A stretch of 64,000 bases of DNA, from assembly GCA_965203275.1 (NCBI GenBank), contig OZ241865.1, positions 1,088,001 to 1,152,000 of the forward strand, in the 5' to 3' direction. Below, piece by piece: positions 5,807 through 62,615 of the stretch. The notes beneath the pieces are model-generated. The model was not told where the DNA came from and made no database searches. It was given only the letters and a program-made list of their open reading frames with translations. This stretch comes from Bdellovibrionales bacterium. GTDB taxonomy: Bacteria > Bdellovibrionota > Bdellovibrionia > Bdellovibrionales > JAUICD01. The first letter of the stretch is position 1; each line of letters begins with the position of its first letter. The position numbers and the translations under genes are program-made.

Positions 5807-5904
5807 CCTTAACATGGAGTTAAGGGACGAAGGGATCCTCCCTACTAAAAGTAAACGGACTTTTGAGGTAGCCAGAGGCTAGTTTACTTTTAGTGAAAAA
5901 CAAC
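5807..5904 (+). repeat. Family A structured repeat, internally deleted copy
   Basis: CCTTAACAT...CTACTAAAAGTAAAC...TAGCCAGAGGCTAGTTTACTTTTAGTGAA plus AAACAAC tail; central arm missing. Confidence 0.8.
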
Positions 5905-5905
5905 T

Positions 5906-6004
5906 CAGGCAATATTAGATTTGGAATTTGTTGGTTGTATGGAATTAGCAAAACAAGCTGATAAATTAGGTGCTTTTTTATACAAATTATGTAAAAATAC
6001 TTAA
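5906..6004 (+). pseudogene. 5'-truncated paralogous remnant of the four-helix-bundle gene (last ~32 codons)
   Basis: Translates QAILDLEFVGCMELAKQADKLGAFLYKLCKNT*, matching the C-terminus of 6149..6454 with mostly synonymous differences. Confidence 0.85.
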
Positions 6005-6082
6005 ATTCAAATTTGATCTTTTCTGGGATCTGGGATCCGGGATCTGGCATCCCGGCATCAGGTTCCAGAGCATTGATTGTAA

Positions 6083-6167
6083 TGAATTTTTTCATCTAAA
6101 AAATTTCCTCCCAAGCCCTGGCGGGTTTTTAGAAAGGAGGAAATTTTTATGACGATGAAAAAATTCA
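6083..6167 (+). promoter_or_regulatory. Hairpin sequestering RBS and start region of the four-helix-bundle gene
   Basis: 6099-6111 AAAAATTTCCTCC pairs with 6136-6148 GGAGGAAATTTTT; 6084-6096 pairs with 6154-6166. Confidence 0.7.
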
Positions 6168-6454
6168 AAACTTACCAATTAGCTACTCAATTTTATCGTA
6201 ATTCTAAAAAATTACATCTGAAAGAGCCTCATAGAAGTCAGTTTCGAAGGGCTGTCTCAAGTATTGTACTTAACTTAGCTGAAGGATCTGCTAAACCTAC
6301 AGCAAAAGATCGTAGGAAGTTTTATTATATTAGTCTTGGTTCTTTAAGAGAGGTTCAAGCGATATTGGATCTAGAGTTTATTGGCTGTATGGAATTAGCA
6401 AAACAAGCTGATAAATTAGGAGCTTATTTATACAAACTGTGTAAAAATACTTAA
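6149..6454 (+). CDS. Four-helix-bundle protein (23S rRNA IVS-encoded/Avd-like family)
   Basis: SQFRRAVSSIVLNLAEGSAK...RRKFYYISLGSLREVQAILDL family signature; strong GGAGG RBS. Confidence 0.9.
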   Translation: MTMKKFKTYQLATQFYRNSKKLHLKEPHRSQFRRAVSSIVLNLAEGSAKPTAKDRRKFYYISLGSLREVQAILDLEFIGCMELAKQADKLGAYLYKLCKNT

Positions 6455-6471
6455 ATTCAATTTTGATCTTT

Positions 6472-6731
6472 TCCGGGATCTGGGATCCGGGATCTGGCAG
6501 TCAGGCAGAGATGAAGCGAATAGCTTGTTTCCTTAACATCGTGTTAAAAAACGAAGGTTTCCTTCCTACTCAAAATAAATGAATTTTCTAAGCAGTTAGC
6601 CTTTGTCGACGACGAAAGTCGTCGGGCTAACTGCCAGAAAACATGCCAGAGGCATGATGCATTTTGAGTGAACCAAACGGCTAGACCACTTTTAGTGAAC
6701 CAGAGGTGTGGCTCATTTTGAGTGAAACAAC
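6472..6731 (+). repeat. Repeat cluster: GGGATCY heptamer module, full family A copy (6531-6678) and two stacked truncated A copies
   Basis: Direct reading; AGTGAA ends at ~6667, 6694 and 6721. Confidence 0.85.
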
Positions 6732-6803
6732 AAGAAAGTTTTAAAGTCAAAAAGATACATCGGCTTAATGGATTCTTATTTTGAGACAAATATAGAATTG
6801 GTC

Positions 6804-7787: not shown

Positions 7788-7826
7788 GATCCTTTTTCCT
7801 CAATATTTTGTTCATCCAATCAATAT

Positions 7827-8090
7827 CCGGGATCTGGCAACCCGGCATCAGATCCCGGGATGCCTGATTGCCTGATCCCGGGAGTGGATATCTTGTTTCC
7901 TTAACATCGTGTAAAGAGACGAGAAGATCCTCCTCTACTCAAAATGCATAGATTTTTGAGGCAATGACCATTTTGCCAATGGCGAAAGCCATTGCGGTCA
8001 TTGCCCAAAAACATGCCAGAGGCATGATGCATTTTGAGTGAACCAAACGGCTAGACCACTTTTAGTGAAACAACTCATTTTGAGTGAAAA
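7827..8090 (+). repeat. Repeat cluster: heptamer (D) module, full family A copy (7899-8048) and two truncated A ends
   Basis: Perfect stems ACTCAAAATGCAT/ATGCATTTTGAGT, GGCAATGACC/GGTCATTGCC, CAATGGC-GAAA-GCCATTG, CATGCC-AGA-GGCATG. Confidence 0.9.
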
Positions 8091-8098
8091 TCACAATT

Positions 8099-10546
8099 TT
8101 AATCGGTTATGTCGTCTGAGGATAACTCAGAAGGCCCTGGATGATTAATATTGCCAGTGCCACCACCACTTGCTTTTGGCCATTTACACTGGATCTCTCT
8201 TTTATTGCCACACTGGGTAAGTCTTGTATGTGGTTTGTTACGGCAAGTCCACCGATGGTGGGTGGCATTGTCTCCTGGATGTGGATGATGGACTCCTTCA
8301 GAACATTTATTATTTATGTTGCCACACACACCACAGACACTTCTGTCAGTCTTATCTCTACTACACCTGACCTCTCTTTTATTGCCACATTTAGCAAGTC
8401 TTGTATGTGGACGATTACGACAAGTCCACCGATGGTGGGTGGCATTAGCTCCTGGGTGTGGATGAACTACTCCAGCAGAACATGTATTAGCTTTTGAGCC
8501 ACAACGTCCGCAGACAGTATTGTCAGCTCTTTCTTTACTACACCTCACCTCTTTTTTATTACCACACTTAGCAATTTTTGTATGTGGACGATTACGACAA
8601 GTCCATCGATAGTGAGTGGTGTTATGACCAGGGTGCGGGTGACGTGTTCCGGACACACATGCATTGACTGTGTTGCCACACTCTCCACAGACACCATTGA
8701 CAGCATTCGGCTTACTACACCTAACCTCTCTTTTATTACCACACTGGGCAAGTCTTGTATGTGGTTTGTTACGGCAAGTCCAGCGATAGTGAGTGGCATT
8801 AGCTCCTGGGTGCGGGTGATGGCTTCCAGCAGAACATGTATTGGCTTTTGAACCACAACGTCCGCATTTCACCGATTTGCTGACAGGCTTTTTCTTACTA
8901 CACCTGATCTCTCTTTTATTGCTACACTGGGCAAGTCTTTTATGTGGCTTGTTACGGCAAGTCCACCGATAGTGGGTGGCATTAGCTCCTGGGTGCGGGT
9001 GATGGCTTCCAGCAGAACATGTATTTGGCTTTGAACCACAACGTCCGCATTTCACCGATTTGCTGACAGGCTTTTTCTTACTACACCTGATCTCTCTTTT
9101 ATTACTGCACTTGGCATTTTTGGTATGTGGCTTGTTACGGCAAGTCCATCGATAATGAGTGGCATTAGCTCCTGGATGTGGATGAACTACTCCAGCAGAA
9201 CATGTATTTGGCTTTGAACCACAACGTCCGCATTTCACCGATTTGCTGACAGGCTTTTTCTTACTACACCTGATCTCTCTTTTATTACTGCACTTGGCAT
9301 TTTTGGTATGTGGTTTGTTACGGCAAGTCCATCGATAATGAGTGGCATTAGCTCCTGGATGTGGATGAACTATTCCAGCAGAACATGTATTTGGCTTTGA
9401 ACCACAACGTCCGCATTTCACCGATTTGCTGACAGGCTTTTTCTTACTACACCTGATCTCTCTTTTATTACTGCACTTGGCATTTTTGGTATGTGGCTTG
9501 TTACGGCAAGTCCATCGATAATGAGTGGCATTAGCTCCTGGATGTGGATGAACTACTCCAGCAGAACATGTATTTGGCTTTGAACCACATTTTCCACAAG
9601 TCACTGGTTTGCTGACAGGCTTTTTCTTACTACACCTGATCTCTCTTTTATTACTGCACTTGGCATTTTTGGTATGTGGTTTGTTACGGCAAGTCCACCG
9701 ATGGTGAGTGGCATTGTCTCCTGGATGTGGATGAAGTGTTCCAACAGAACATGTATTGGGCTTTGAACCACATTTTCCACAAGCCACTGGTTTGCTGACA
9801 GGCTTTTTCTTACTACACCTGATCTCTCTTTTATTACTGCACTTGGCATTTTTGGTATGTGGTTTGTTACGGCAAGTCCACCGATGGTGAGTGGCATTGT
9901 CTCCTGGATGTGGATGAAGTGTTCCAACAGAACATGTATTGGGCTTTGAACCACATTTTCCACAAGCCACTGGTGTTGGGCTTTTTATTGGTGATGGACT
10001 TGGTCTTGGTGATTCTGCAACGTTAGCTATCGATCTAGAATGATAAATCCAAGTACCTTCTCTATCTGTTTGCACATTCCAGGTGAATTGAGGATTGCTG
10101 TTACAATTGTTAAGAATTTGTACAACACTGATCTCGCTACTTCCTTGACAGCCTGTGGCAATTCTCTTTTTACAGTAAGCAATATTAACTTTTGAAATTT
10201 GATTTGGGTTGGTAATACAATCTTGATCTATTGGACAGTAATATCCGTAACGCCAAGACCTGCTAGAATGACTGTGGTATCTTAAATCATCTATTACATC
10301 ATCTATAAAATCATAATTATTACAAGCATTCTCATCAGGTGGTAACATGCCAATAAATGGCTCTGGAGTGTCCTCTGGCACTGCTGGTGGTATATATTGG
10401 GAGGGGGTCACTATTTGAGGGGAAGCAGATGTAGAAACACTTTGAGTAGGATTATTTTTTGATTCACAATTGTTAAATTGTAAGCCAAGTAGAGCAAAAG
10501 ATATAATGATCACAATAAGAGAAAATTTTTTTCCTTTTATTTCCAT
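8099..10546 (-). CDS. Secreted lipoprotein with ten ~60-aa Cys/His-rich tandem repeats
   Basis: LGLQFNNC lipobox-like; repeat CGxCGSKxNTCSxGxxHPHPGxNATHxRWTCRNKPH...CxNKRExRC. Confidence 0.85.
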   Translation of the reverse strand: MEIKGKKFSLIVIIISFALLGLQFNNCESKNNPTQSVSTSASPQIVTPSQYIPPAVPEDTPEPFIGMLPPDENACNNYDFIDDVIDDLRYHSHSSRSWRYGYYCPIDQDCITNPNQISKVNIAYCKKRIATGCQGSSEISVVQILNNCNSNPQFTWNVQTDREGTWIYHSRSIANVAESPRPSPSPIKSPTPVACGKCGSKPNTCSVGTLHPHPGDNATHHRWTCRNKPHTKNAKCSNKREIRCSKKKPVSKPVACGKCGSKPNTCSVGTLHPHPGDNATHHRWTCRNKPHTKNAKCSNKREIRCSKKKPVSKPVTCGKCGSKPNTCSAGVVHPHPGANATHYRWTCRNKPHTKNAKCSNKREIRCSKKKPVSKSVKCGRCGSKPNTCSAGIVHPHPGANATHYRWTCRNKPHTKNAKCSNKREIRCSKKKPVSKSVKCGRCGSKPNTCSAGVVHPHPGANATHYRWTCRNKPHTKNAKCSNKREIRCSKKKPVSKSVKCGRCGSKPNTCSAGSHHPHPGANATHYRWTCRNKPHKRLAQCSNKREIRCSKKKPVSKSVKCGRCGSKANTCSAGSHHPHPGANATHYRWTCRNKPHTRLAQCGNKREVRCSKPNAVNGVCGECGNTVNACVSGTRHPHPGHNTTHYRWTCRNRPHTKIAKCGNKKEVRCSKERADNTVCGRCGSKANTCSAGVVHPHPGANATHHRWTCRNRPHTRLAKCGNKREVRCSRDKTDRSVCGVCGNINNKCSEGVHHPHPGDNATHHRWTCRNKPHTRLTQCGNKREIQCKWPKASGGGTGNINHPGPSELSSDDITD
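8180..9972 (-). repeat. Intragenic tandem repeat, ~177-183 bp unit, 10 copies
   Basis: Near-identical 183-bp units visible at 8870-9970. Confidence 0.9.
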
Positions 10547-11809: not shown

Positions 11810-11811
11810 TG

Positions 11812-12720
11812 GGTTGTTTCAGTTGTTTCACTCAAAGTGAACTGACCTCTGGTCACTTTCTGGCGATGACCACGATGGCTTTCGCCATCGATAAAATGGT
11901 CATCGCCTAGAAAGCCTGTTCACTTTGAGTAGGGAGGATATCCTCGTTTTTTTACTACATGTTAAGGGTTTGTTTCACTAAAAGTAAACCAACCTCTGGT
12001 TGCTTTTGGACATTGCTCTGACAGCTATCGCTGTCCAAAAAGAGCAATGTCGTTGGTTCACTAAAAGTGGTCTAGCCTCTGGCTACTTTCTGGCAATGAC
12101 CGCAATGGCTTTCGCCATTGGCAAAATGGTCATTGCCTAGAAAGCTTGACCACTTTTAGTAGGGAGGATCCCTTCGTCCCTTAACTTCATATTAAGGAAA
12201 AAGTCCTTTCTTACACCTTTTGACCACGATGGCTTTCGCCATCGATAAAATGGTCATCGCCTAGAAAGCCTGTTCACTTTGAGTAGGGAGGATATCCTCG
12301 TTTTTTTACTACATGTTAAGGGTTTGTTTCACTAAAAGTAAACCAACCTCTGGTTGCTTTTGGACATTGCTCTGACAGCTATCGCTGTCCAAAAAGAGCA
12401 ATGTCGTTGGTTCACTAAAAGTGGTCTAGCCTCTGGCTACTTTCTGGCAATGACCGCAATGGCTTTCGCCATTGGCAAAATGGTCATTGCCTAGAAAGCT
12501 TGACCACTTTTAGTAGGGAGGATCCCTTCGTCCCTTAACTTCATATTAAGGAAAAAGTCCTTTCTTACACCTTTTGACCACGATGGCTTTCGCCATCGGT
12601 AAAATGGTCATCGCCTAGAAAGCCTGTTCACTTTGAGTAGGAAGGATATCCTCGTTTTTTTACTACATGCTAAGGAAAAAGTTCCTTCTGTTGCCGGTTT
12701 GCCGGATGCCGGAAAAAAGA
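11812..12720 (-). repeat. Family A repeat cluster containing a 354-bp tandem duplication (~2.3 copies)
   Basis: GACCACGATGGC recurs at 11868, 12222 and 12576; full A copies at ~11825-11967, 12055-12197 and 12409-12551. Confidence 0.9.
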
Positions 12721-13450: not shown

Positions 13451-13454
13451 CGTT

Positions 13455-14357: not shown

Positions 14358-14370
14358 TTTTGTACCTATA

Positions 14371-15783
14371 TTCACTAAAAGTAAACTAGCCTCTGGCTAC
14401 TTTTGGGTTGCCAGCCCGACGGCTCTCGCCGTCGATCAAAGGCTGATTGCCTCAAAAATCCGTTTATTTTTAGTAGGAAGAATCCTCTTGTCTCTTTACA
14501 CGATGTTAAGGAAACAAGATATCCACTCCCGGGATCAGGCAATCAGGCATCCCGGGATCTGATGCCGGGTTGCCGGATCCCGGATCCCGGATAAATATCA
14601 TGTTAAGGAAAAAGTTCCTTCTGTTTCACTGTTTCACTAAAAGTAAACTAGCCTCTGTTTCACTCAAAGTGAACTGGCCTCTGGCCACTTTCTGGCGATG
14701 ACCACGATGGCTTACGCCGTTGACAAAATGGTCATCGCCTAGAAAGCCTGTTCACTTTGAGTAGGGAGGATCTCCTCGTTTTTTTACTACATGTTAAGGA
14801 AACAAGCTATTTGTTTCACTCAAAATAAATCATGCCTCTGGCATGTTTTCTGGCAGTTAGCCCGACGGCTCACGCCGTCGATCAAAGGCTAACTGCCTAG
14901 AAAATCCATTTATTTTTAGTAGGAAGAATCCTCTTGTCTCTTTACACGATGTTAAGGAAACAAGATATCCACTCCCGGGATCAGGCAATCAGGCATCCCG
15001 GGATCTGATGCCGGGTTGCCGGATCCCTGATCCCGGATCCCGGATAAATATCATGTTAAGGAAAAAGTTCCTTCTGTTTTACTGGTTCACTAAAAGTAAA
15101 CTAGCCTCTGGCTACTTTCTGGCAATGACCGCAATGGCTTTCGCCATTGGCAAAATGGTCATTGCCTAGAAAGCTTGACCACTTTTAGTAGGGAGGATCC
15201 CTTCGTCCCTTAACTTCATGTTAAGGAAAAAGTCCTTTCTTACACCTTTTGACCACGATGGCTTTCGCCATTGGCAAAATGGTCATCGCCTAGAAAGCCT
15301 GACCACTTTTAGTAGGGAGGACCTCCTCATCTCTTTACACGATGTTAAGGAAACAAGACATTCACTCCCGGTATCTTGGATCTGGCACTGGCATCCCGGG
15401 TTCCGGGACTTGATGCCGGTTTGCCGGATACCAGATCCCAGAAAAAGGATCCCTTTATGTCTTTATACCATGTTAAGGAAATAAACTATTTGTTTTTTTG
15501 TTTTTTTATTTTCTTTTAGATTCTGCGTAATTTTCAAAAAAGCATGAGTATTATGAGTGGGAGGCGGGGGCAGGCTGAAGATCTTCCGCAGACCCGCTTG
15601 CTCCCTAAAAACATTTTAGAAGCATATCTTGTTTCCCTAACATGGTGTAAGAAGCAAGGAGATCCTCCTCTACTCAAAATGAGCGGATTTTTTAGGTGTT
15701 GCCTATTTTGTCAAAGGCGTAAGCCTTTGCAGGCAACACCAAAAAACACACCAGAGGTGTGGCTCATTTTGAGTGAAAAAAAT
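14371..15783. repeat. 1.4-kb mosaic repeat cluster between xseB and ispA (A, D and partial B modules)
   Basis: A copies at ~14371-14510, 14657-14798, 14813-14956, 15084-15226, 15251-15350 (minus) and 15635-15780 (plus); D modules at ~14520, 14970 and 15365; partial B at ~15490-15625. Confidence 0.9.
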
Positions 15784-20643: not shown

Positions 20644-21152
20644 TTCACTAAAAGTAAACTGACCTCTGGTCACTTTTGGGCATTGGCTCACTAAAAGTGG
20701 TCTAGCCTCTGTTTCACTCAAAATGAGCCACATCTCTGGTGTGTTTTTGGGCATTGCTCTGACAGCTTACGCTGTCTAAAAAGAGCAATGTCTCAAAAGT
20801 CCGTTTACTTTTAGTAGGAAGGATCTCATCGTCTCTTAACCACATGTTAAGGGTTTGTTTCACTCAAAATGCATCATGCCTCTGTTTCCCTAAAATTGAA
20901 CTAGCCTCTGGCTACTTTTGGGCAGTTAGCCCGACGACTGTCGTCGTCGATCAAAGGCTAACTCCCTCAAAAGCTTGTTCAATTTTAGGAAGAAGGATCT
21001 CCTCGTCTCTTGACCACATGTTAAGGAAAATATCCTTTTAATACCAGTTAGCCCAACGGCTTATCGCCGTTGATCAAAGGCTAACTGCCTAGAAAATCCA
21101 TTTATTTTGAGTAGGGAAGGATCTTCTCGTCTCTTAACCACATGTTAAGGAA
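20644..21152 (-). repeat. Family A repeat cluster (two full and several truncated copies)
   Basis: TTCACT/TTCCCT ends at ~20644, 20688, 20713, 20859 and 20886; ATGTTAAGG at ~20844, 21018 and 21142. Confidence 0.9.
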
Positions 21153-21159
21153 AAAGTTC

Positions 21160-21385
21160 TTTTTTTTTGTTTTTTTATTTTTTTAGATTCTGCGTAAAAC
21201 CTCAAACAAAAAGTAATTAGGTGGAGGATGGGGCAGTGGGAGACTGAAGATCTTCCGCAAATTGAGCTTGCTCTTTAAAAGCAAGCTCAATTGAGGACTT
21301 CGGAAGGCTCTCACTGCCCTATCCTCAAATAAAAATAAAATGGAAAAGCAGAATCGAAGGGCGGTGGGTGGGGTTAGGGATAATC
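21160..21385. repeat. Family B nested-hairpin dispersed repeat, copy 2 (inverted relative to copy 1)
   Basis: Reverse-complement match to 5572-5800. Confidence 0.85.
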
Positions 21386-21528: not shown

Positions 21529-21672
21529 GTTGGTTCACTAAAAGTAAACTAGCCTCTGGCTACTTTTGGACATTGCTCTGACAGCTATCGCTGTCCAAAA
21601 AGAGCAATGTCTCAAAAGTCCGTTTACTTTTAGTAGAAAGGATATCCTCATTTTTTAACACGATGTTAAGGA
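21529..21672 (-). repeat. Family A full copy
   Basis: GGTTCACTAAAAGTAAACTAGCCTCTGGCTA...GACATTGCTC..GAGCAATGTC..GTTTACTTTTAGT..ATGTTAAGG. Confidence 0.9.
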
Positions 21673-21677
21673 AAAAA

Positions 21678-24600
21678 ATGTATATATACAAAAAAATTAT
21701 TTATTTAGTTTGGTTTTATTTTTCATTTGTACAAATATTTGCACAAACACTTCTGCAAAAAAATTGCATAACGCAATTAGCCTACCCCCCCCCCCCCCCC
21801 CTTAAGTCCAGGTTTTGATTATCTTAAAAAAAATCATTTTAAAAAGTGCAACCAGCCACAGCCAGAGTCACAGCTAGGGATGGGCTTAGTAGAGATGTTG
21901 ATTGTGATGACCATGCTTGCCTTAATCAGTGTAGGTACAGCATATTACTTCACACAGAGCCAAACAGTGATGCGTTCATCTGCACAAGATTCAGATTGTC
22001 AAAGCATTGCTCAGTCAGCTTTAGATAGAGTTGTGTCGTTGGGAACTCGTCTTTACGGATATAGAGTAGGTCATACTGACTCTGATCTTAGATATAACCC
22101 TCTTTTTATCAAAAAAGGAACTCAAATAACAGGTAGTACTCCAGCGGCTTATCGGATTACAGATACAAGCTCTGGTAATAATTTAAGCCTTACAGATAAA
22201 TATAAGAATTTATACGAAGAATTAACAAATAACACCCCTCCTGCCCTGCTTGTGAATACAGGAGTTCCTTTAGTAAATCTTTCTGGTAGTGGCTTTATTA
22301 ATATAGGTACATCTGTGTTACTAGTTAATTCTGTAAATTTTTTGCAGTATATGTATAATTCTGACCCTGAATTTTTTAATGGTAATAGTGGCAAAGGTAA
22401 AGACTTTACTATTACAAGTAGTACCTCAACAAGTAATAATAAAGTGATAGCTTCTTTATGGAAGGACTATCTTAAAAAGTACAATCTTCAAAATGTGAAA
22501 TTCTACATCAGGATTAACCCTGTTGATCTGAAAAATCAAAAGGTGATAGAGAGTTATTCAGGTATTAAATGTTACTATACAAGATATAAGGGTTCAAAGT
22601 TTGTCTCAACAGAGATTCCTTGTCCGCGTCCATCTAGTCACCCATCACATAAATTAGTGTTGACTCATCCTAGGCTTTCTGTTGGGACTTCAACTTTAAG
22701 TAGTTCATCAAATTTACGCACCATAGGTAATCCTGATTTAGGATTTCAGGTGACAGTTAAGTTAAGTTATGAAAAGAATAATCAGGATTATTCTTGTAAG
22801 AGCATGCAACGATTTGCTCACCAAACTCGTTTATTGATGGAACAGACAACTCCAATTAATGTTTCAGTGACTTCCCTTAAGAATGGCCATAACAAAAACT
22901 TACTACCTAATGGTGGTCGTAAGCAGACTTCATGTGACACAGATGGTTCAAATTATAGAAACATCACCATGGAGTTAAATTTTGATAATACAGCCGGCAG
23001 AACAACTAAGGAGTTTGGAACATTATTTTTATGTCGTGGAGTACGTTGGAGGTATCCTGATAGAGATTGTAATACAAATAAAATAGAAAAAATATATGGA
23101 CCTTGGCGGAGATGCCATCAAGTGAAATTTCCAGATCAAAGAGGTAATACAGAGTCTGTTTTGTTAAATAGCAGTGGCCATAATATAAAGCTACGATTAA
23201 AATTTAATAACTTAAAGGAAGATAGAAGCTATGCTTTAGAGATTGCAGAAGTATCGCAATTAGGTATTTCTAAACCACCTTATCAGCGTATAACAAACAG
23301 TCGCTTTTATATAGATGCTACAAGACCTACATTAATTGCAAGTATAAATGACAGCGACGTAGGTTCACCAGACGATTTTGTAACGGCTCTTATTGATGCA
23401 AATTGGATAGATCATTTACCTAAGGTTCGATTTAAACATGGTAAGAATCATAAAAAAGGACCTGGTTTGCAGTGCAATTCAAATCCTGTCAGCTTTCATG
23501 GTTGCATCATCGATAAGTTTACTCATAATTTAGGAGACTGCACCGCAACAGGCCGTCGGAGAGATGGTAATGGCACCCAATCTATACCTGCTAGTTCGAT
23601 CAGTATAAGCACAAACTCACTTAGTTGTAGTGGCACATTAAGTTCGGTTCAACATGGTCGACAAAAATTGATGATCACTCCTAGTGATATTTGTGGCAGT
23701 GGTTCTAGTGATCAACTTGAATGGGATACAGACCTTCCAAGTACATTTGTAGCCAGACCTTTTTCTACAAACCCTTATTGGCTTCAAAATAAAAAGAAGA
23801 CAAAATATATAATTCAAACACTTGTACCAGCTTCAGGGGCGGGTACATTCCCGAAGCATTATGCAGTGACATGTTATGGAAAGGAATATTCAACCGCTAC
23901 AAGAACAGCTAGCAATGGAGGGAGCATTTCCTGTGAATTTAATGGCAGTAGAAATAGTGGATCTGGCGATCATGATGGGTGCAATTCTGCAAATTTCGGT
24001 GTGAAGTATCATCATATTTGTGGTGATTCTTCTAGTACGCAAGCAACACAATGGGGGGTGTGGGTGGCACATCCAGATCACGGTGGTGGAAGTTGTGAAA
24101 ATGTACCTTGTGAACCTAGATCTGATAGATATTCTAAAGATTTGATATGTTGCGATGGCTTTCGTAATGAGTGTGGTAATGCAGGGAGTACACCACATCG
24201 ATGTGCTAAGGATAATCATCCTCGTAGGAACGACTGTGGTAACCCTACAGGAGGAGGTAATAGTGAACAAGATACAACTTCTGATTGTCCACCATTGGGT
24301 CTCTATGACTGTAATTATACTTTGCCCTGTGAAGGAGATGCAGGAGAGCTGAAAAATAGAAGAGATAATGGTGATGCTTGTAAGAATAAGAGGCCGAGGC
24401 TTCGTAGAGGCGATAGATGTACTTTTAATAGACCTGGTCAGTGTAAAAATCGTTTTACAGACCAGGGATATAATGGATACTCTGAAATTGAAATTGAGAG
24501 TACACCCGGTGAATGTCACCTTAATGATAATTCAAAAGTATCGTGTACTGTTGAGGCACTGTGTAAGAAGAAATATAAATATGAAAATAGAAGTAACGCA

Positions 24601-43000: not shown

Positions 43001-44158
43001 CCTATATCTTTGAGTCTTCGTATTAATGTTTCATCTGTTTGATCTTCAAATAAAATTTTCAATGAGACAATTTGTGTTTCTTTCATTCTTTTGATTCGTT
43101 CTATATTTTCCTGATACTTTTTTGCTTTGCCTTTTATTTCTTCTGATGGGTTTTTTAATTGTTTATAATCATCAATAACTTTTATATTATCTTTTAATCT
43201 ATCAAAGCTTCCTGGATGCTTTTCTTTGTATTTTTTAGCATCTTCACTTTTTATCTCTTGCTGTGTCTCTACATCTGCAAGTAAGGCTGGCTCTCCCCTG
43301 ACAATCAAACGCAGTTCATTGTAGAGCATATCTCTGAGCAAATCCCTGTAATGCTCTCTTTCAATACCATTGCTAACCCTGGCAGCTTCCTCACGGCTAT
43401 CAGAAAAAGCAATAAGCTTTTTATTTTCTGAAGGCATTCGATAAAAAAGCTCTTTAGATAGAATTTGAATCATTTTTGAAAAGCCAGTTCTAAACCCTCT
43501 AATGGGTGTTTTGTTGTTTGTTCTTTGAGTGTAATCTGTAGCACAACTAGGGCATATTGAAGCTAGTGCCATTGCATTTGATTCTTTATTGCTGGTATGA
43601 AATAAATAGCCATTAATACCATCTTTTTGGTTTGTATGTCCAAGTTGGACTTTTCCTGTTTTTATATTTAAAGAGGCTGTTTTCCAAGAGGCTTTATCTT
43701 TTGTTTTACTTGTTGATTTTGTAAGAGATGATGGACTCCATTTTTTATCTTTAACATCTGTATCAATTTCTGTATTGGGCCAAAAAAGAGCAAAATCTTT
43801 ATAACTTCTTTTTTCAACAAAAAAAGCTTTTTTGAAGCATTTTTATCTGGTGTTGATACAATTCAAAGTTTTTTTTCATCAATCCAGCTTGAATAAAGTC
43901 TTGAAACTTTTTGATCTGATCAGGTGAAAAATCTTTGAGATCATCTTCTGTCAAAGCAGAGATATTTTTCTCTGAGCTTTTGTATTTTGGAATCAGTTCG
44001 ATCCAGGGCTTTTGATAAAACAAACCTTCTTTATCTAGACGCTTTTTTCTTTCCTGTTCAACAGATGGAAACTGTGGTGTTGCAAATCTTGTCTGCACAT
44101 ATAGCTTAAAGCTATCTTTTATTTCTTCAAAGGTTTTGATAGGGTCACGCAATGCCAT
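40048..44158 (-). pseudogene. DruE-like DEAD/DEAH helicase with DUF1998, internally deleted and frameshifted
   Basis: N-terminal fragment 43814..44158 ends at the Q-motif LYQHQ. A second frame from ~43821 (FVEKRSY...) continues into 40048..43572, which has [20 protein letters not shown] and CDSACHRCL. No Walker A or DEAH in between. Confidence 0.75.
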
Positions 44159-44229
44159 CCTCCTTAATGACTTATTACCTTAAAAACGCTTACTTATAAG
44201 ATATCCATGTATCTTATTTGTCTATAGAC

Positions 44230-44592
44230 CTAGGCTGTTTTCTTTTTTGAATATGTTTGGAACATCCATAAAACTTGTGATGCGGGCATTGTAATATTTT
44301 GTTTTTTCTTAGCTGCTTTTTCAATATCTTTCTTTAAAAAACGTTGCCATTGTCTAGGATTGTCACTGAACTTTTCTGCTACCATTTTGGCAAATTCAAG
44401 GCAAGGAAAACATCGACCTGTCTCTAAGTCACTCAATTGCCTTTTGCTAATTCCTAACATCTTTGCTACCTGACTTTGTGTCATTTTATTGCACAATCTT
44501 TCAGACTTTAAAGCACTTGCGAAAGTCAAAGGACCAAACTCTGTCTCTAGTTTTTCAGTTGTTATTACTCTGCCTTTTCTATTTATAGTCAT
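44230..44592 (-). CDS. XRE-family HTH protein (HigA-like)
   Basis: MTQSQVAKMLGISKRQLSDLETGR. Confidence 0.85.
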   Translation of the reverse strand: MTINRKGRVITTEKLETEFGPLTFASALKSERLCNKMTQSQVAKMLGISKRQLSDLETGRCFPCLEFAKMVAEKFSDNPRQWQRFLKKDIEKAAKKKQNITMPASQVLWMFQTYSKKKTA

Positions 44593-45550
44593 GTTTAGTG
44601 ACCCCCTTTATAATGATACGATAAAAACCTTTATTCTCAATAAGTTTGGCTATTTCATAAGGTACATTTTTAAAAATGAACTTTCTTCTTTCTTTTTGAG
44701 GGAGACTTCCTGAAAGCATTGTCAATGCTCTTTCTAAGAGAGGTGGAAGTCGAAGATCACTACTCAATTCAAAAGTTTTTTTATTGTATTTTAAAATACT
44801 TTTACTAGAATTCTTGAGTATTAGCCATCGTCCCTGATCTAAATGAACCTTTACTTTACATTCATTTGATTTTTTGAACAAATAGTATTTGTAATAATTG
44901 TTATAATGAGAGAGTTTGATAAGAGATAACTCTTTTTTTAAAGATTGATTTTGATTAAATTTTTTGAATGTTAATTGAGTTAAGTCAAACACTTCTTTAA
45001 TGTCTGATGCTTGTCCACTATGCCAATGAGGATTTAAATATTCCTCATAATCAGATAGATTTTCAGCAAACTCTAAAATACTCCAAGCTATAGGTTCTTT
45101 ACAAATCTTGATATAAGATGATAATTGATTACCCTGAAATTTCACTTGATCCCATTGAGCTTCTAAGCTTTGTATATCTTCAGGTTTTATAATGATAGTA
45201 TCAGGAAGATGCTTATTTGTTTTTATATCAATATTTATATGCATTTTAAGTGTTTTTAAAAGATGAAAAGAGCGTCCTCCTGTTAAAAGAAAAGTTGGTT
45301 GTATAAATGGTAATGCAACCAACATAGGAGGAGCTACTTGAACAAATGTCTGATCGTTGGTTTCCCCTATATCAATGTAACCTAAAGCACTTAAGTCTCT
45401 AGCTAAGTTGTATGCGAAATATTTGCTTTCTTGTTCTGTTATTTGTCTTGTATAAAGAAGCTCTACATATTTTCTAAAATCACTCCAGCTAAGAGATTTT
45501 TTCTCAGAGAGTAAATACAGTAAGTGGTTTCCAGATTGATTTTTAGACAT
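44579..45550 (-). CDS. Hypothetical protein; candidate Druantia-like accessory subunit
   Basis: Co-oriented upstream of DruE-like helicase; recalled similarity (LLYLLS..SW.DF..L.ALGYID..VAPP.L) not verified. Confidence 0.45.
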   Translation of the reverse strand: MSKNQSGNHLLYLLSEKKSLSWSDFRKYVELLYTRQITEQESKYFAYNLARDLSALGYIDIGETNDQTFVQVAPPMLVALPFIQPTFLLTGGRSFHLLKTLKMHINIDIKTNKHLPDTIIIKPEDIQSLEAQWDQVKFQGNQLSSYIKICKEPIAWSILEFAENLSDYEEYLNPHWHSGQASDIKEVFDLTQLTFKKFNQNQSLKKELSLIKLSHYNNYYKYYLFKKSNECKVKVHLDQGRWLILKNSSKSILKYNKKTFELSSDLRLPPLLERALTMLSGSLPQKERRKFIFKNVPYEIAKLIENKGFYRIIIKGVTKHDYK

Positions 45551-46391
45551 TTTGAGCCTTGTTTAAAAACTTTTTCCATTCCTTTTTCCACCCTGCTTTT
45601 GATTTGGAGTCTACTTGGATTCGCTTTCTTTTATGCCAAATAATTTTTTTAACTCCTTTAATCTTAAATAAATGCCAATCCTGTGGTATCCCTTTAAAGG
45701 GTAATTCTTGACACTTGTCGCAGTGCTTTTGACCCCATTTTTGCACTTTGTCTAAAAGATTATTATGGATAGCAAGGTAAAAGGGCTGATCAGGTGTGTA
45801 TCTTTGACCTGATATCCAACCACGTATTTCAAGGTGATCTGCTTTAGTGAATATATTGTATTTTTCTCCTTTATAATGAAATTTGTATTGATCACTTGTT
45901 GCATCAAAATCTTTTGTCCAATCTTCCATCTTAAAATTTTCAATAGGAGCAGATACAGAAAAGCTAGAAGTAGAAACTTTCCATTCTTTATTTTTATTTT
46001 TTAAGTTAAAATCTTCTTGAGGAAGACCAGCTATTCTTCTACATCTAAAGGAAAATTGAGCTTGTTTAGCAGTGCAATCTATTTCATCCAAACAAAGATC
46101 AATAAAACCTCTTTGAGTATCCGTATTTTTTTGATCAGATAAATTTGCTTCATCAAGCTCTTCTAGCTGTTTTAAGACTCTTTGAATTAAAGCTGTTTGA
46201 AAGTCAAACTTTCCTTTCTCAATCCTTTTTGAGGTCCTATTTGAAAGCTTATTTTTATGAAACTTTAAAGCTTTTAATATTTCTTCATCTGTAGGATGAG
46301 AGTTAGAATCCCATCCCATTTTCCAAAATATCTCAGGAATTTCTTTAAGATCGTCTTGTGTTAGAACAACTTGATAATAAAGAATACCCAC
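45543..46391 (-). CDS. Hypothetical protein, probably 5'-truncated; candidate Druantia-like accessory subunit
   Basis: Overlaps the next gene; GTG start without RBS, frame open only 9 codons further. Confidence 0.4.
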   Translation of the reverse strand: MGILYYQVVLTQDDLKEIPEIFWKMGWDSNSHPTDEEILKALKFHKNKLSNRTSKRIEKGKFDFQTALIQRVLKQLEELDEANLSDQKNTDTQRGFIDLCLDEIDCTAKQAQFSFRCRRIAGLPQEDFNLKNKNKEWKVSTSSFSVSAPIENFKMEDWTKDFDATSDQYKFHYKGEKYNIFTKADHLEIRGWISGQRYTPDQPFYLAIHNNLLDKVQKWGQKHCDKCQELPFKGIPQDWHLFKIKGVKKIIWHKRKRIQVDSKSKAGWKKEWKKFLNKAQNV

Positions 46392-47593: not shown

Positions 47594-47838
47594 AACAGAA
47601 ACTAGCTTACTTTTAGTGAAACAAACTAGCTGAAATCACTTAATTTCTAATTTTCAAACCTAAATTCCTTACCTTTCCAAAGAAATCCAGAGAAACAAAC
47701 TTTTTCCTTAACATCTCACTCAAAATGCATCATGCCTCTGGCAGGCTTTTGAGACAGTTAGCCTTTGATCGACGGCGAGAGCCGTCGGGCTAACTGTCCA
47801 AAAGTAGCCAGAGGCTAGACCACTTTTAGTGAAACAAA
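47589..47838 (+). repeat. Family A fragments and a head-to-head hybrid copy upstream of rpn
   Basis: AGTGAAAC ends at ~47589, 47615 and 47828; GGC-GAGA-GCC arm. Confidence 0.8.
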
Positions 47839-47843
47839 TGTGT

Positions 47844-47872
47844 TTGACATTCCATCAAGATATGTTTATTCT
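47844..47872 (+). promoter_or_regulatory. Sigma-70-like promoter for rpn (possibly leaderless mRNA)
   Basis: TTGACA-N17-TATTCT, 7 nt before ATG 47880. Confidence 0.5.
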
Positions 47873-47879
47873 ATGCAAA

Positions 47880-49040
47880 ATGAATCAAGTGAAACAAAAT
47901 CATCTTAAGAATCAAGCTCAAAAAGAAGAGCAACAAGCTATTTCTCAAGCTCATGTCCATGACCTGTCTTTCAAAAGGTTTTTTGATAGTGTAGAGAACA
48001 TATTAGCCTTTTTAAACCTTGCTTTTTCTCAGGCATTTCTAAACCTTTTTAACCTTGACTCACTCAAAATAGAAAAGAATGTTTTAATAGCAGGTATAGA
48101 AATGCAAATAGACCTTCTCATTTCATTAACCCTTAAAAACTCTCAAAAAACAGTCAGATTTATCTTTCTTTTAGAACACAAAAGCTGGCCAGACCATAAT
48201 GTCTTAAAACAATTATTAAAATATCAGGCTACAGTCTATGAAAAATATGGCTATCCAGTAATTCCTATTGTTTTTTATCACGGGATGAAAAAATGGACAG
48301 TGCCTATTTCTTTCCATGATTACTTAGAATCTCAAGGTTATTTTCCTGATCATTCTCGCAGTCTTATTGCTCCTTACCTTATGAATTTTTCTTATGTGCC
48401 ATTTGATCTATCGGTTTATGATATAGAAGCGAAGGCAAAAGGTTCAATGATCAGCCCTATTTTGCATTTATTTCAGGGTATTTGGTCTTTAGATAGTAGA
48501 AAAAGTACAAAGGAACAGCATGATTTTTTCATAAAATTTTTTTCATTTGTGAAAAAAGTGTCGCAAAGTACCGATAAAAAGTATATAATAGAACTCATCA
48601 CTAAAGCGATGACTTATTTTTATCAGTACAATAATCAGTTAAGTAAAGAAGTTGTTCAATCAGCTTCAAAAGAAGTGACTCAACAATTAGGAGGAGAAAA
48701 TATTATGGAAGCATTTGATTTTACCATAGAAGGAACTATGAAAAAAGGCATTCAGATTGGCCGAGAAGAAGGCATTCAGATTGGCCAAGAGAAAGGCATT
48801 CAGATTGGCCGAGAGAAAGGCATTCAGATTGGCCAAGAGAAAGGCAGAGAAGAAGGTAGGCAAGAAGGTAGGCAAGAAGGTAGGCAAGAAGGTAGGCAAG
48901 AAGGCAGAGAAGAAGGTAGGCAAGATATTATCTTAAATATGCTTAAAAATAACATGGATATTTCGATCATTGCAAAAATCACAGAGTCCACAGAGAACAA
49001 AATACGAGAAATACAGAAAAAACTAAACAACTTGGGCTAA
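47880..49040 (+). CDS. Rpn/YhgA-family PD-(D/E)XK nuclease (putative transposase_31)
   Basis: HDLSFKRFF, IDLLI, LLEHKS, QLLKY, PVIPIVFYHG..W; C-terminal GIQIGREE/GRQE repeats. Confidence 0.9.
   Translation: MNQVKQNHLKNQAQKEEQQAISQAHVHDLSFKRFFDSVENILAFLNLAFSQAFLNLFNLDSLKIEKNVLIAGIEMQIDLLISLTLKNSQKTVRFIFLLEHKSWPDHNVLKQLLKYQATVYEKYGYPVIPIVFYHGMKKWTVPISFHDYLESQGYFPDHSRSLIAPYLMNFSYVPFDLSVYDIEAKAKGSMISPILHLFQGIWSLDSRKSTKEQHDFFIKFFSFVKKVSQSTDKKYIIELITKAMTYFYQYNNQLSKEVVQSASKEVTQQLGGENIMEAFDFTIEGTMKKGIQIGREEGIQIGQEKGIQIGREKGIQIGQEKGREEGRQEGRQEGRQEGRQEGREEGRQDIILNMLKNNMDISIIAKITESTENKIREIQKKLNNLG
48705..49040 (+). CDS. Putative in-frame internal small protein (RpnS-like antitoxin)
   Basis: AGGAGGAG upstream of in-frame ATG 48705 (LGGENIM). 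Confidence 0.6.
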   Translation: MEAFDFTIEGTMKKGIQIGREEGIQIGQEKGIQIGREKGIQIGQEKGREEGRQEGRQEGRQEGRQEGREEGRQDIILNMLKNNMDISIIAKITESTENKIREIQKKLNNLG

Positions 49041-49056
49041 AGATTATTGCATTTTT

Positions 49057-49570
49057 TTCACTCAAAATAAATCATGCCTCTGGCATGTTTTCTGGCAGTT
49101 AGCCCGACGGCTGTCGCCGTCGGGCTAACTGTCCAAAAGTAGCCAGAGGCTAGTTCAATTTTAGGGAAACAGAGGCTGGTTTATTTTTAGTGAAAAAGAT
49201 AAGAAGGCGGTAGCCTTCGGCTGGCAACCAGAAAGTAGCCAGAGGCTAGACCACTTTTAGTGAAACAACTCCTTAACATGGAGTAAAAAAACGAGGAGAT
49301 CCTCATGACTCAAAGTGAACAGGCTTTCTAGGCGATGACCATTTTATCGATGGCGAAAGCCTTTGCAGGGCAACAAGTGTAAGAAGGAACTTTTTCCTTA
49401 ACATGGTGTTAAGAAATGAGGACATCCTTCTTCCTAAAATTGAACAAGCTTTTGAGGCGGTTAGCCTTTGATCGACGGCGGTAGCCGTCGGGCTAACTGC
49501 CCAAAAGTAGCCAGAGGCTAGTTCAATTTTAGGGAAAAAGACCACTTTTAGTGAAAAAAACCAAACAAAC
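49057..49570 (+). repeat. Family A cluster between rpn and ftsH (fold-back copy, hybrids, full copy 49396-49538, long A/C tail)
   Basis: Direct reading; ends AGTGAAAAAAACCAAACAAAC immediately before the ftsH RBS. Confidence 0.9.
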
Positions 49571-58058: not shown

Positions 58059-58067
58059 AAAAATATT

Positions 58068-61000: not shown

Positions 61001-61118
61001 TCTCTGTACCTGTTAGCTGACCTTTGTGGATGAAGTCAATGATCTCTGTTTGATTATAAGGGCCAGCTATCTGCCCATCTGTGTACTTGACCATCCACTT
61101 TGAATTATTTTTAGACAT
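58068..61118 (-). CDS. Membrane-anchored TPR protein with GYF-like N-terminal domain
   Basis: WMVKYTDGQIAGPY; TM helix; many TPR repeats. Confidence 0.85.
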   Translation of the reverse strand: MSKNNSKWMVKYTDGQIAGPYNQTEIIDFIHKGQLTGTEKVSEYPGGLWQNLSKCPPFYEALLSALANPLIPHPDKESPDEDLENAPEVENIDVTPSTDHSEKPLIESISAEDIVSDHSGQILNSSSRKKNGLDKDLLDSEASEKTETPEQKPSVLSSQDIDFKDVHHSPYASQVSHNSNMPLPKNQQLLAQDFPKNETQQMIQEKPPGKKKQKKKSSRSISKLLFLCCFISVAYLVLDEGEEEEKTQRVSLIFPSKFDIGKVSEDKLKERFQKILKLFYTSTYKGYVQAQEQLVQLAEDASDVPDILGQLCLTHRELWPYSQKTSEDRIAITQLSQRISQVQAIGIHQNLCLIVKHLLSDQIEMASNITNNALKNYSEIPVLYDIKAEILARSGQYDEAIAYIQKAQSMAKQNTWTHWLKLYIREAQYQIDQKLSINQKPPIAVAETLRQIHTQNPSHIFTMVLLGYLDLTVLENHQQGIQRITQGLKSNEILLLPDIYSRVTLALSRYYISQKNNKMALNFAQKSYEKDPLNLKSKEIILSIGGQEALQALHTTESQLIALGDFFYEKKKFAEAQAQYKAAFEQNPKNAMAALRAGQSLWELNFRTESVTWMKKALVADPQMIDVYVALSDILSQKYQFDMAMAFLLRGIRKTSQNYKLLKSVALVELRRQNYKGAISFAKKALKLYDTDIETNMILAQGLYHLDKYQEAYQIMAKAIELVGVDAKIQSFYAKVIAALQGREFGEKYILPLINTYPDQPDYKIALAEIYFMDHEYQKAEAILNEIVIRDPRNKKAQVLLGDIYRQMPDREINKALKAYLNAAIADPVDAKPLFQVGVIYMEAQRYTEAIPQFETVLKINDKYPRAYFYQGQAYLQLGQTNEALQAAKKEKQINPNLAESYLLAGDTYMKTGHYAKAIAEYQRAIKIRPQGGQIYISLAQAYRLSNNFDVAEKMIAQAEKLSGANPLIYKEQGEIYEQKGQVQRAIAVYERYIQTAPNAYDKKIIESKILKLSQQ

Positions 61119-61163
61119 TTGACATCCTAAAATTTTTATTTACGTTACGTTACACTTTTAAAA

Positions 61164-62423
61164 TTATTCCTTTGTTCTTATAATATTTCCTCCTAATGAA
61201 CAAAGTTTCTGCTCTAATTTTTCGTACCCTCTATCTAAATGATACACCCTATGAAGAGTTGTTGTACCTTCTGCGACAAGGGCTGCTAAAATTAAACTAG
61301 CACTTGCCCTTAAGTCTGTAGCTATTAAATCAGCTCCCTTTAATCTTATCGGTCCTCTTACGATAGCAACTTTTGTTTTAGGTGTAATATTTGCTCCTAA
61401 TCTTTTTAATTCTTGAACATGCATAAAGCGATTTTCAAAAATATTCTCTGTGATGACACTTACACCCTCTGCTTGTGTCATAAGAGCCATAAATTGAGCC
61501 TGAAGGTCTGTGGCAAACCCTGGATAGGGTGCAGTAGATATATCCACTGCTTGAAAGGATTTGCCAGGTGCAATGTGTACCCAATCTGCCCCTTCTCTGA
61601 GATAAAAACCTGCTTCTTTTAGTTTATCAATTAATGCTTTCAAATGCGATGGAATACAGTGTTGAATGGTCACATTGCCACCAGTGATGGCACCTGCTAT
61701 GAGAAAAGTTCCTGCTTCTATACGATCAGAGATAATACTATGGGCTTGTTCTACTGGCCTAAGGCATGGAACTCCCTTTATTTTAAGTAAACTGCTACCA
61801 GCACCTAGAATGTCAGCTCCCATTTTATTCAGATAATGAATAAGATCTGTGATTTCAGGTTCTTTGGCTGCATTTTCTATGATAGTTTCTCCTTCTGCCA
61901 TTACAGCAGCCATAAGTATATTTTCTGTCCCTCCTACAGTAACTCCATTAAAAATAATATGAGTTCCTTTAAGTTTTTCACACTTGCCATGAACGTAGCC
62001 ATCTTTGATTTGAAATGAAGCTCCCATAAGCTTAAGAGCTTCTATGTGCTGGTCAATAGGACGTGTTCCTATAGCACAGCCTCCTGGCAGACTGACAATG
62101 GCTTTCTTGCATCTTGCTAAAAGAGGACCTAGGCATAAAACACTAGCCCTCATTTTACTCACAAGCTCGTAGGGAGCTTTGATACTTTTAATTTGAGGGA
62201 TAGAAACTTTTAATTGTTTATCCTGTCTTTGAATAGTTGCCCCTAATTCTTTGAGAAGTAGAATAGTCGAATCCACATCTTTTAAATAAGGGACATTTGT
62301 AAAGGAATGTTTCCCTTCTGCTAAAAGTGTAGAAAACAAAATAGGCAAGACAGCATTTTTAGAGCCACTACAAGCTATTTCCCCTGACAGCTTGTGTCCT
62401 CCTTGAATAATTATTTTTTCCAT
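61164..62423 (-). CDS. murA: UDP-N-acetylglucosamine 1-carboxyvinyltransferase
   Basis: SGSKNAVLP, LPGGCAIGTRPIDQH, TDLRAS, HLDRGYE. Confidence 0.97.
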   Translation of the reverse strand: MEKIIIQGGHKLSGEIACSGSKNAVLPILFSTLLAEGKHSFTNVPYLKDVDSTILLLKELGATIQRQDKQLKVSIPQIKSIKAPYELVSKMRASVLCLGPLLARCKKAIVSLPGGCAIGTRPIDQHIEALKLMGASFQIKDGYVHGKCEKLKGTHIIFNGVTVGGTENILMAAVMAEGETIIENAAKEPEITDLIHYLNKMGADILGAGSSLLKIKGVPCLRPVEQAHSIISDRIEAGTFLIAGAITGGNVTIQHCIPSHLKALIDKLKEAGFYLREGADWVHIAPGKSFQAVDISTAPYPGFATDLQAQFMALMTQAEGVSVITENIFENRFMHVQELKRLGANITPKTKVAIVRGPIRLKGADLIATDLRASASLILAALVAEGTTTLHRVYHLDRGYEKLEQKLCSLGGNIIRTKE

Positions 62424-62540
62424 AGTCGTTTCCCCTCAATTTTTTTGTACATATCATTCTCAATCCTTTGTTTGGGCCTTTTATTATCTAATTTCGGTTA
62501 TTGTCGTCTACCCGTACGCACCTCTTTCAGAGATACGTGC

Positions 62541-62615
62541 GTTTGGTTCACTAAAAGTAAAGTGACCAGAGGTCAGACCACTTTTAGTGAAACAAAGCAC
62601 TTTGAGTGAAACAAC
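62541..62615. repeat. Family A end fragments (head-to-head fusion plus stacked end)
   Basis: GTTTGGTTCACTAAAAGTAAA|GTGACCAGAGGTCAGACCACTTTTAGTGAAAC..CACTTTGAGTGAAACAAC. Confidence 0.8.

Follow-up and report, generated by a model that had tools for sequence, protein, structure and literature searches.

The described systems closest to the repeat analyzed here are REPs (repetitive extragenic palindromic sequences) and the bacterial interspersed mosaic elements (BIMEs). According to the cited sections of the literature, the TnpA-REP protein cleaves and rejoins single-stranded REP DNA at CT or CA and can excise circles, and the REP-associated tyrosine transposase (RAYT) was proposed to release and rejoin BIMEs (PMC3333891, PMC8266576). 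We analyzed a repeat family, termed family A, in a 64,000-nucleotide stretch of the genome of a Bdellovibrionales bacterium (assembly GCA_965203275.1, contig OZ241865.1, positions 1,088,001 to 1,152,000 of the forward strand; hereafter the window). Our best reading is that family A is a non-autonomous, REP/BIME-like selfish intergenic element that is moved in trans. A preliminary description of the window had suggested a structured mobile element that is non-autonomous and exceeds a simple REP in complexity, and our analysis supports this suggestion.

The family A unit consists of a leader of about 14-20 nt followed by a stretch that runs from CCTTAAC to AGTGAAAC, and it is about 160 nt long with the leader. 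The core of 97-105 nt contains helix P1 (13 bp), a 3-nt purine linker, helix P2 with one bulged A, an asymmetric loop, helix P3, and helix P4 with an AGA loop; the head lies 5' of P1. The leader upstream of CCTTAAC and the genome-wide spread of the family were overlooked in the first reading.

As the cited parts of the literature describe them, REPs, BIMEs and REPINs share with family A a high copy number, an extragenic location and an arrangement in mosaic arrays (PMC3333891, PMC8266576, PMC3116915). They also share with it a conserved fold with compensatory changes, a bulged stem, a strand asymmetry, and the proposed excision of circles with re-integration at a dinucleotide. However, family A is a 101-nt three-way junction, whereas a REP is described there as a hairpin of 20-40 nt. 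The GTAG tag of REPs was found in 0 of 515 family A copies at each of three places, ahead of P1, within the leader and within the tail, and GTGG was found in at most 3. A RAYT gene lies beside REP repeats, but the family A host genome (G000) is without one. Unlike REPs, which often form inverted doublets, family A inserts as a single unit at empty sites, and its junctions show filler and target loss.

Other short repeats were also compared. The CGTC-tagged REPs, including RPE-4 and RPE-6 of Rickettsia and dRS3 of Neisseria, are abundant palindromes for which the cited part of the source gives no dedicated transposase (PMC3733652). Family A is like these REPs and the Rickettsia palindromic elements (RPEs, 105-146 bp in the cited sections) in its abundance and size range, in that no dedicated transposase was found for it, and in its occurrence in host-associated bacteria (PMC3733652, PMC2229807). 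But the CGTC tag was found 0 times before P1, once in the leader and 11 times in the tail of the 515 copies. Family A also lacks the 12-bp terminal inverted repeat of those elements as described there, and it showed no RPE-style in-frame insertion (0/543), yet 48 open reading frames (ORFs) end inside its 3' end. The bcr1 repeat of the Bacillus cereus group, compared by description only, is likewise about 155 bp long, keeps a branched fold by compensatory changes and occupies non-conserved positions; according to the part of the source cited, it is flanked by 5-bp direct repeats and transcribed, whereas family A has no fixed duplication and nests in itself (PMC3184786).

MITEs (miniature inverted-repeat transposable elements) such as Correia, RUP and ERIC are, in the cited text, short, non-coding and mobile in trans, as is family A (PMC2229807). 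However, family A is without terminal inverted repeats of the MITE type, since the longest inverted end match was 3-6 nt in 454 of 515 copies and at least 7 nt in 61 of 515. It is also without the TA duplication given for MITEs in that text, and its ends are unrelated to those of the resident IS256 and IS1634-like insertion sequences, which were rejected as drivers. The integron attC site is a folded single strand with an extrahelical base, its structure being conserved over its sequence, and its units are joined at a short motif. Family A shares these features with attC, but its host has no integron integrase, its arrays show no alternation with gene cassettes, and it has hundreds of dispersed copies. 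In retrons, a reverse transcriptase (RT) gene lies beside the structured msr-msd unit, but G000 has no RT. In the open-access literature we found no description of family A, subscription papers and ISfinder being outside this search. Taken together, family A works like REPs and BIMEs but differs from them in tag, size and the lack of a RAYT, and it differs from MITEs, attC sites and retrons as well.

Fold, copy number and distribution of family A

In a mixed alignment, both sides changed in 30 of 42 base pairs and 96.1% of the cells were paired, which 0 of 500 shuffles reached; when the pairing partners were slid, the paired cells dropped to 36-50%. The architecture first described from the window, P1, bulged P2, P3 and P4 with its AGA loop, was thus recovered. 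Because the copies are related, shuffling was then restricted within strata: 193 distinct cores were taken without a pairing filter, and 3' arms were shuffled only among copies sharing the neighboring or enclosed segments. Perfect arms were found in 136 of these cores for P1, 175 for P2a, 142 for P2b, 176 for P3 and 177 for P4, each above all 2000 within-stratum shuffles. The helices P1 to P4 therefore covary even inside subfamilies (0/2000 stratified shuffles per helix). Helices were mixed between subtypes with their arms nonetheless matched, and both the bulged A of P2 and the AGA loop of P4 were invariant (193/193 each).

Single mismatches on the CCTTAAC-to-AGTGAAAC strand were G-T in 55 cases and A-C in 21 (p 1.2e-4), suggesting that this strand is likely the folded one; strand-biased deamination would also point to the same strand. 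The arms matched across shuffled interiors and the excess of G-T over A-C mismatches agree with the proposal, made from the window, that selection acts on a folded single-stranded three-way junction. We consider it very probable that family A is a selfish repeat selected on its fold.

The P3 loop had been described as GNNA. This holds for most copies in G000, where 612 cores had 328 GNRA loops and 202 GNYA loops, but not for 46 five-base and 36 unparsed loops, nor for the second genome with the element (G001), in which the loop is looser. RNA tetraloops prefer GNRA, whereas DNA mini-hairpins accept G-N-N-A loops. The hairpins that had been assigned to the 5' region were not recovered: the region was unpaired in the RNAalifold consensus and its variable positions were almost unlinked. 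Pairing between leader and tail was rejected because the covariation was not significant (p 0.07). Hypermutation of the 5' segment was also rejected; the same haplotypes recur on different cores, which mosaicism fits better.

The host genome is 2.57 Mb long, in a single contig, and 90% complete. It was searched with a covariance model of 44 copies (12 from the window, 1 from elsewhere in G000, 27 from G001 and 4 from contigs of a third genome, G004), so that the 12 window copies match by construction. The window gave 14 near-full matches (at least 107 bits) and 12 partial matches. The copies occupy about 9-10 intergenic zones and not seven. All 11 stem variants typed from the preliminary description occur in the window, and the terminal pair is switched to CCT/AGG in two copies, one that ends at 20886 and one at 49396-49539. 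A head-to-tail pattern matched 9 times in the window and 0 times in 100 shuffles. By the covariance model, G000 holds 733 full copies and 1303 hits in total, or 6.15% of the genome; the mosaic arrays number 582 and make up 8.2% of the genome once companion modules are counted. In contigs of 4/4 public runs, one or more of which may be the source sample itself, array bins were 100-300 times deeper than adjacent genes, so that family A is not an assembly artefact. At contig joints from these runs, alleles are inseparable from other copies.

When 151 genomes of the order were searched with the covariance model, with 21 candidates scored per genome, family A was found in 3 of them, G000, G001 and G004. 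The matches of G004 are confined to its contigs C1, C4 and C11. The L14 protein of C11 is 98% identical to that of G001, whereas G004's own L14, on a large contig, is 79% identical, and the three contigs are thus read as same-genus contamination, C11 being the one tested. Presence at the family level was rejected on this evidence; within the genomes searched, family A was found only in one genus of Bdellovibrionales. There was no match in viral contigs, JGI metagenomes, plasmids or phages, and a low-share run labelled sponge metagenome held a diverged form of the flanking genes and repeats. C11 carries three L14 copies, two of them partial or broken, and G001 carries two.

A known RNA family was sought in Rfam 15, which gave 0 matches above the gathering score in the window (best sub-threshold match 15 bits, E 1.6-1.9). 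Relative to co-directional flanking genes, 144 copies were in sense and 131 in antisense orientation, or 68 vs 60 with 10 ties when counted per gap. The lack of both an Rfam match and a gene-orientation bias makes an RNA gene unlikely, and the lack of bias together with the many GNYA loops argues against a cis-acting RNA role; an RNA intermediate is still compatible with the orientation and loop data. The alternative of a non-coding RNA family, which the preliminary description had left beside the mobile element, is therefore weak, given also the 733 full copies and the clear insertion footprints.

Insertion sites, junctions and mode of movement

Candidate empty paralogous sites were found for 39 of the 582 arrays. 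Many of these were other repeat copies, and about ten independent events were retained by eye. In the cleanest empty/filled pair, the insert is 157 nt long and 0 target bases were lost or duplicated. Because this insert starts 16 nt upstream of CCTTAAC, the leader belongs to the unit. The other events replaced, as read by eye, roughly 2-4, 5, 10, 10, 10, 14-35 and 30 target bases, the window copy at 21531-21671 being among them, and one of the events may include a short degenerate duplication. A target-site duplication was thus absent at the clean insert, and target was lost at other empty sites. Thirty solo copies shared only words of 4-8 nt at their flanks, a comparison made with no control set. 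Junctions with non-repeat DNA, counted from profile hits that include some mirror-strand noise, were 296/337 at the 3' end and 118/211 at the leader. Family A thus has a fixed 3' end, a variable 5' end and no fixed target duplication, and its insertion often costs 0-30 nt of target.

The leader is linked to the context upstream of it but to nothing past the head motif, and identical cores bear different 5' segments, suggesting that new copies often join inside old heads. Within older copies, 3' ends landed recurrently in the P4 loop, and an inverted 3' end was joined exactly after head position 9 in 110 cases in G000. A target could be identified for 454 distinct 3' junctions, of which 315 had filler, 30 shared CA at +5/+6, and the rest were near-blunt; the 30 CA-sharing junctions fell to 14 targets once the P4 loop was collapsed. 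Filler past +5 was rich in A (783/1490, vs 480/1434 in the replaced target bases). A circularly permuted copy, present at G000 2552475 and 2552774 as a tandem duplicate, showed a reciprocal CA crossover with no target loss, as would be left by a circle that integrated at a CA dinucleotide.

The ends of family A also lie close to gene boundaries. Outward 3' ends were found at -45 to +20 nt from a facing stop codon in 92/205 cases, whereas heads were found there in 11/108 (p 1e-10). Near starts, the counts were 46/272 for 3' ends and 3/88 for heads. In 48 ORFs the stop codon is supplied by the 3' end of the element, and the abutting-end pattern was seen at 8 of 37 tRNAs, one apparently spurious. 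The 3' ends lie 0-10 nt from mature tRNA ends, on either side, at G000 216535, 342280, 653183, 781172, 1867563, 2009843 and 2503379 and at locus L083. No family A copy lies inside a filtered ORF (0/543), the sole unfiltered case being an ORF that lies over an array. These adjacencies to stops, starts and tRNA ends, and the strong covariation, are what could be expected if the host had selected and retained the copies for a regulatory function, as a terminator, an mRNA stabiliser or a nucleoid-binding site in RNA or DNA. We regard this as very improbable, because the copies have no orientation bias and no Rfam match, are absent from the other genomes searched, and break paralogous genes by their insertions. 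There is also no enrichment for upstream promoters, which were found in 11/71 cases against a background of 14.8%; promoter targeting was rejected for the same reason.

The reading that we prefer, and to which we give about half of our confidence, is that a protein acting in trans recognizes the folded strand in the form of DNA and sets it free, in some cases as a circle, for joining by a fixed 3' end. Such a structure-specific protein would act on single-stranded DNA in the manner of RAYT on REPs and BIMEs. The 3' end of the released strand would be attached by a microhomology of 1-4 nt, with CA over-represented, or by short A-rich filler, and its 5' side either by homology with a head already present or by leader microhomology. 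Such events, when repeated, would overwrite older copies and so give mosaic arrays with stacked 3' ends. Repeated 3'-end joining might also act as a ratchet that removes flanking DNA until it reaches an indispensable gene or tRNA. The arms would stay matched because no chimeras other than well-paired ones would serve as donors. The enzyme, lying outside the searched families, may be unrecognised, lost, or located on a replicon outside the assembly.

Several observations weigh against movement by a DNA-joining protein of this kind. HUH strand transfer is normally precise, though 315 of the 454 junctions carry filler and only 30 share CA. The evidence for a circle is one event, seen as a tandem pair, in a copy that is chimeric, and no free intermediate was observed. 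Three arrays have the same flank of about 75 nt on either side. Automatic pairwise alignment resolved 1 of 8 empty/filled pairs, the deletion sizes of the roughly ten events having been read by eye, and the target deletions may be later than the insertions. G000 has no protein of the Y1/RAYT family (PF01797) and no Y2/IS91 transposase, and the one Y1 protein of G001 is that of an IS200 with no family A in its locus.

Moreover, the fixed 3' end, the A-rich filler and the variable 5' end fit reverse transcription equally well. In a retroposition like that of short interspersed nuclear elements (SINEs), read-through transcripts would be trimmed to the P1 stem with a short A-rich 3' tail, and an RT supplied in trans would prime on a broken target and, at the 5' side, jump to the target or to an older head. 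The excess of A in the filler (783/1490 vs 480/1434) and the G-T excess on the strand that would be the RNA are consistent with this scheme, as are the RTs of G001, two loci of group II intron type and one of retron St85 type. Group II intron-like RTs perform microhomology end joining and terminal transfer, as far as the cited part of the source describes them (10.1101/2022.03.14.484287). However, there were 0 RT candidates in G000, which apparently has more copies than G001, and G002, another of the genomes searched, has an RT and no element. No family A hit was found in the two group II RT loci of G001, the 202 GNYA loops are not those preferred by RNA, and a circle would account more easily for the permuted copy. 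We therefore hold retroposition to be rather unlikely. In G001, one family A copy is located next to a tRNA, some 450 nt downstream of the retron-type RT; at this locus (L083) the retron St85-type effector is fused with its RT in one ORF of 603 aa.

The preliminary description had proposed that an enzyme gene would co-occur with the family, but no HUH, RT or recombinase gene tracks family A, and no candidate was found among the families searched, which cover part of the proteome. IS110 was rejected as a driver because it was found only in G002, and DUF559 because it gave single hits only. GIY-YIG proteins occur as one ORF of 612-653 aa in each of the five genomes G000 to G004 and were read as UvrC from their size. 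A TnpB-type domain was found only within proteins of 1343-1365 aa beside cas1. The tyrosine recombinases are one Xer-like protein and one short form, the latter also present in G002; as integron integrases the two score 55 and 54 bits against a cut-off of 265 (TIGR02249). IS256 sits inside family A copies at two loci. Prim-Pol was found as a decayed fragment in G000 only. Scans with regular expressions for motifs of HUH, RT, Ku, PolX, AEP, RecT, ligase and protelomerase, a weak method, gave nothing credible. An origin from CRISPR was rejected, since a 14-nt likeness to the type II-B repeat of G000 is missing from the repeat of G001 and the genuine tracrRNA-like sequence shows no relation. Nor is family A tracked by CRISPR repeats, tracrRNA, Prim-Pol or the status of SbcD.

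The lack of an enzyme among the families searched could also mean that there is no dedicated enzyme. In this case hairpins would stall replication and be copied by host template switching or microhomology repair, and the fold would be kept by binding of a host protein or by arm-to-arm copying that repairs mismatched stems. The imprecise junctions with microhomology are consistent with this idea; SbcD is absent from G000, and the CGTC-tagged REPs, in the part of the source cited, likewise lack a dedicated transposase (PMC3733652). But G001 has both SbcD and the element, whereas G002, G003 and G004 have neither. The precise recurrent junctions, namely the 110 inverted joints at head position 9 and the landings in the P4 loop, together with the invariant bulged A and AGA loop and the strict polarity, suggest specific recognition. 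Copying by host functions alone is therefore an improbable explanation, less so than a regulatory role. Tentatively, and with less confidence than we give to a RAYT-like protein, we consider that family A may move by a novel route. This would be either SINE-like retroposition by an RT in trans or an unrecognised nuclease/joining enzyme that reads the three-way junction. Such an enzyme would paste the fixed end via microhomology, overwrite older copies and flanks up to gene boundaries, and rewrite the C-termini of proteins.

Arrays of the window and their companions

The arrays combine family A with two other modules, module B, heptamer repeats that flank a four-helix-bundle gene, and module C. 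Module B and family A heads were co-oriented in 390 of 475 adjacent pairs. Module C is a hairpin of about 230 nt whose arms covary and whose internal loop is invariant, and it is usually followed directly by a family A head; G000 has 47 pattern matches with 44 distinct cores, and a related form is present in G001 loci. It had no Rfam match above threshold, and matches to the C motif at 91 outside loci had neither a hairpin nor family A. In the window, module C is found at 5577-5806, 15479-15620 and 21151-21380.

The first array starts with the module C recognized from sequence at 5577-5806 (plus strand), directly upstream of a family A head. The copy that follows (5807-5900, plus) has P2 and P3 deleted and is fused at its 3' end with part of a four-helix-bundle gene. 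Heptamer repeats (6021-6066, plus) precede the four-helix-bundle gene itself (6149-6454, plus; PF05635, TIGR02436), a multi-copy cassette and frequent target that is flanked by heptamers over 6021-6515. A full copy lies at 6531-6675 (plus), with stacked 3'-end fragments of other subtypes up to 6726. Behind another full copy at 7899-8045 (plus), stacked 3' ends extend to about 8090; the ORF at 8099-10546 has its stop about 10 nt away.

On the minus strand, a full copy at 11824-11967 has its 3' end facing the start of the undecaprenyl diphosphate synthase gene. Next to it is a tandem duplication with a period of 354 bp, in which the full copy at 12054-12197 is followed by a 3'-truncated copy (12198-12321) that is interrupted by the next copy, and the duplicate full copy at 12408-12551 by another 3'-truncated copy (12552-12675), all on the minus strand.

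A mosaic array of 1.4 kb lies between xseB and an ispA-like gene, and its 3' ends face both genes. It contains, on the minus strand, full copies at 14368-14511, at the edge of the ispA-like gene, at 14656-14799 and at 14812-14957, a full copy with chimeric P1 arms at 15083-15226 and a 3'-truncated copy at 15227-15350. In the model of the second copy, the head is at 14799-14763 and P1 at 14762-14750 is paired with 14674-14662; the DNA fold of 14650-14815 had a z of -8.45. A full copy of opposite orientation (15635-15780, plus) lies in the loop region of the partial C module, with its 3' end about 15 nt from the xseB stop.

Further on, the minus strand has a near-full chimeric copy at 20710-20852, with stacked 3' fragments on to 20641, and the full copy with the CCT/AGG terminal pair at 20883-21026, which lies inside the P4 loop of an older copy whose head is at 21027-21150. 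The complete module C follows at 21151-21380 (minus), and the DNA fold of 21000-21380 had a z of -6.3. A solo copy with a short leader (21531-21680, minus) has an empty paralogous site elsewhere, with about 10 target bases replaced, as read by eye.

The copy at 47706-47836 (plus) has its head joined at position 9 to an inverted 3' end. It is followed by an Rpn/YhgA-like PD-(D/E)XK gene (47829-49040, plus), which lies between arrays and is read as a target and not a driver. Two 3' halves are placed back to back at 49054-49204, fused at the P3 loop and continued by a stacked tail. A 3'-truncated copy (49271-49395, plus) and the full CCT/AGG copy (49396-49539, plus) then lie upstream of an FtsH-like gene. 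At 62547-62615, 3'-end fragments of both orientations are clustered, and after them a solo right end of an IS1634-like element is found at 62620-62730; solo ends of this kind occur repeatedly in the genome. Family A has also repeatedly targeted another repeat family, which consists of a short hairpin and a purine-rich tract upstream of it (window 62500-62545 and G000 756361). This other family may resemble the palindromic elements of Rickettsia.

Two gene families are often followed by arrays. Arrays lie downstream of 14/14 Rpn genes (PF12784), compared with 199/1372 single-copy genes, and follow 11/11 four-helix-bundle cassettes. The Rpn nuclease was rejected as a driver since the insertions differ between paralogs and G003 has 16 PF04754 matches and no element. 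The four-helix-bundle family has 24 members in G000 and 19 matches each in G001 and G004, with none in G002 and G003; the cassette was rejected as a driver because five loci on large G004 contigs have the cassette and heptamers without family A.

Elsewhere in G000, an AT-rich repeat of about 75 nt alternates in tandem with family A copies, like a long duplication or an array, at 2019921, 2100020 and 2354670. Both G000 and G001 have a CRISPR array of one and the same type whose end is abutted by a family A head (L127 and L128). In the type II-B CRISPR array at G000 2266380, the initial bases of the first repeat have given way to a family A 3' end. G000 has an almost flat cumulative GC skew, with a range of about 3300 over its 2.57 Mb, as would agree with frequent inversions between repeats, and a single full-length Xer-like recombinase was found. 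In the window, a ClpB-like ORF of 740 aa (33235-35457) starts at the first AAA domain; many other ORFs of the genome, judged by their translations, start with a ClpN-like stretch after a signal peptide. The region 40048-46391 contains a broken helicase gene (a 114-aa fragment upstream of a 1174-aa ORF) with unknown neighbor ORFs, possibly a decayed defence locus. At loci L132, L133, L134 and L135 there are several small elements in decay, among whose contents are a serine recombinase, an HNH gene, fragments of Prim-Pol and ankyrin genes.

Meaning for the host and for short mobile repeats

The way in which orphan palindromic repeats spread through bacteria is still to be explained. With its hundreds of copies, nested covariation, fixed end, self-targeting and empty sites, family A allows the junction rules to be read directly and candidate enzymes to be tested. 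For the host, it means that about 6% of a 2.57-Mb genome is made of the repeat, with arrays in housekeeping gene clusters, broken paralogs and 48 protein ends derived from repeats. If the mover is not new, family A is an unusually elaborate member of a familiar class; if a new enzyme or an RT in trans is responsible, it would represent a new mode of mobility of short elements in bacteria.

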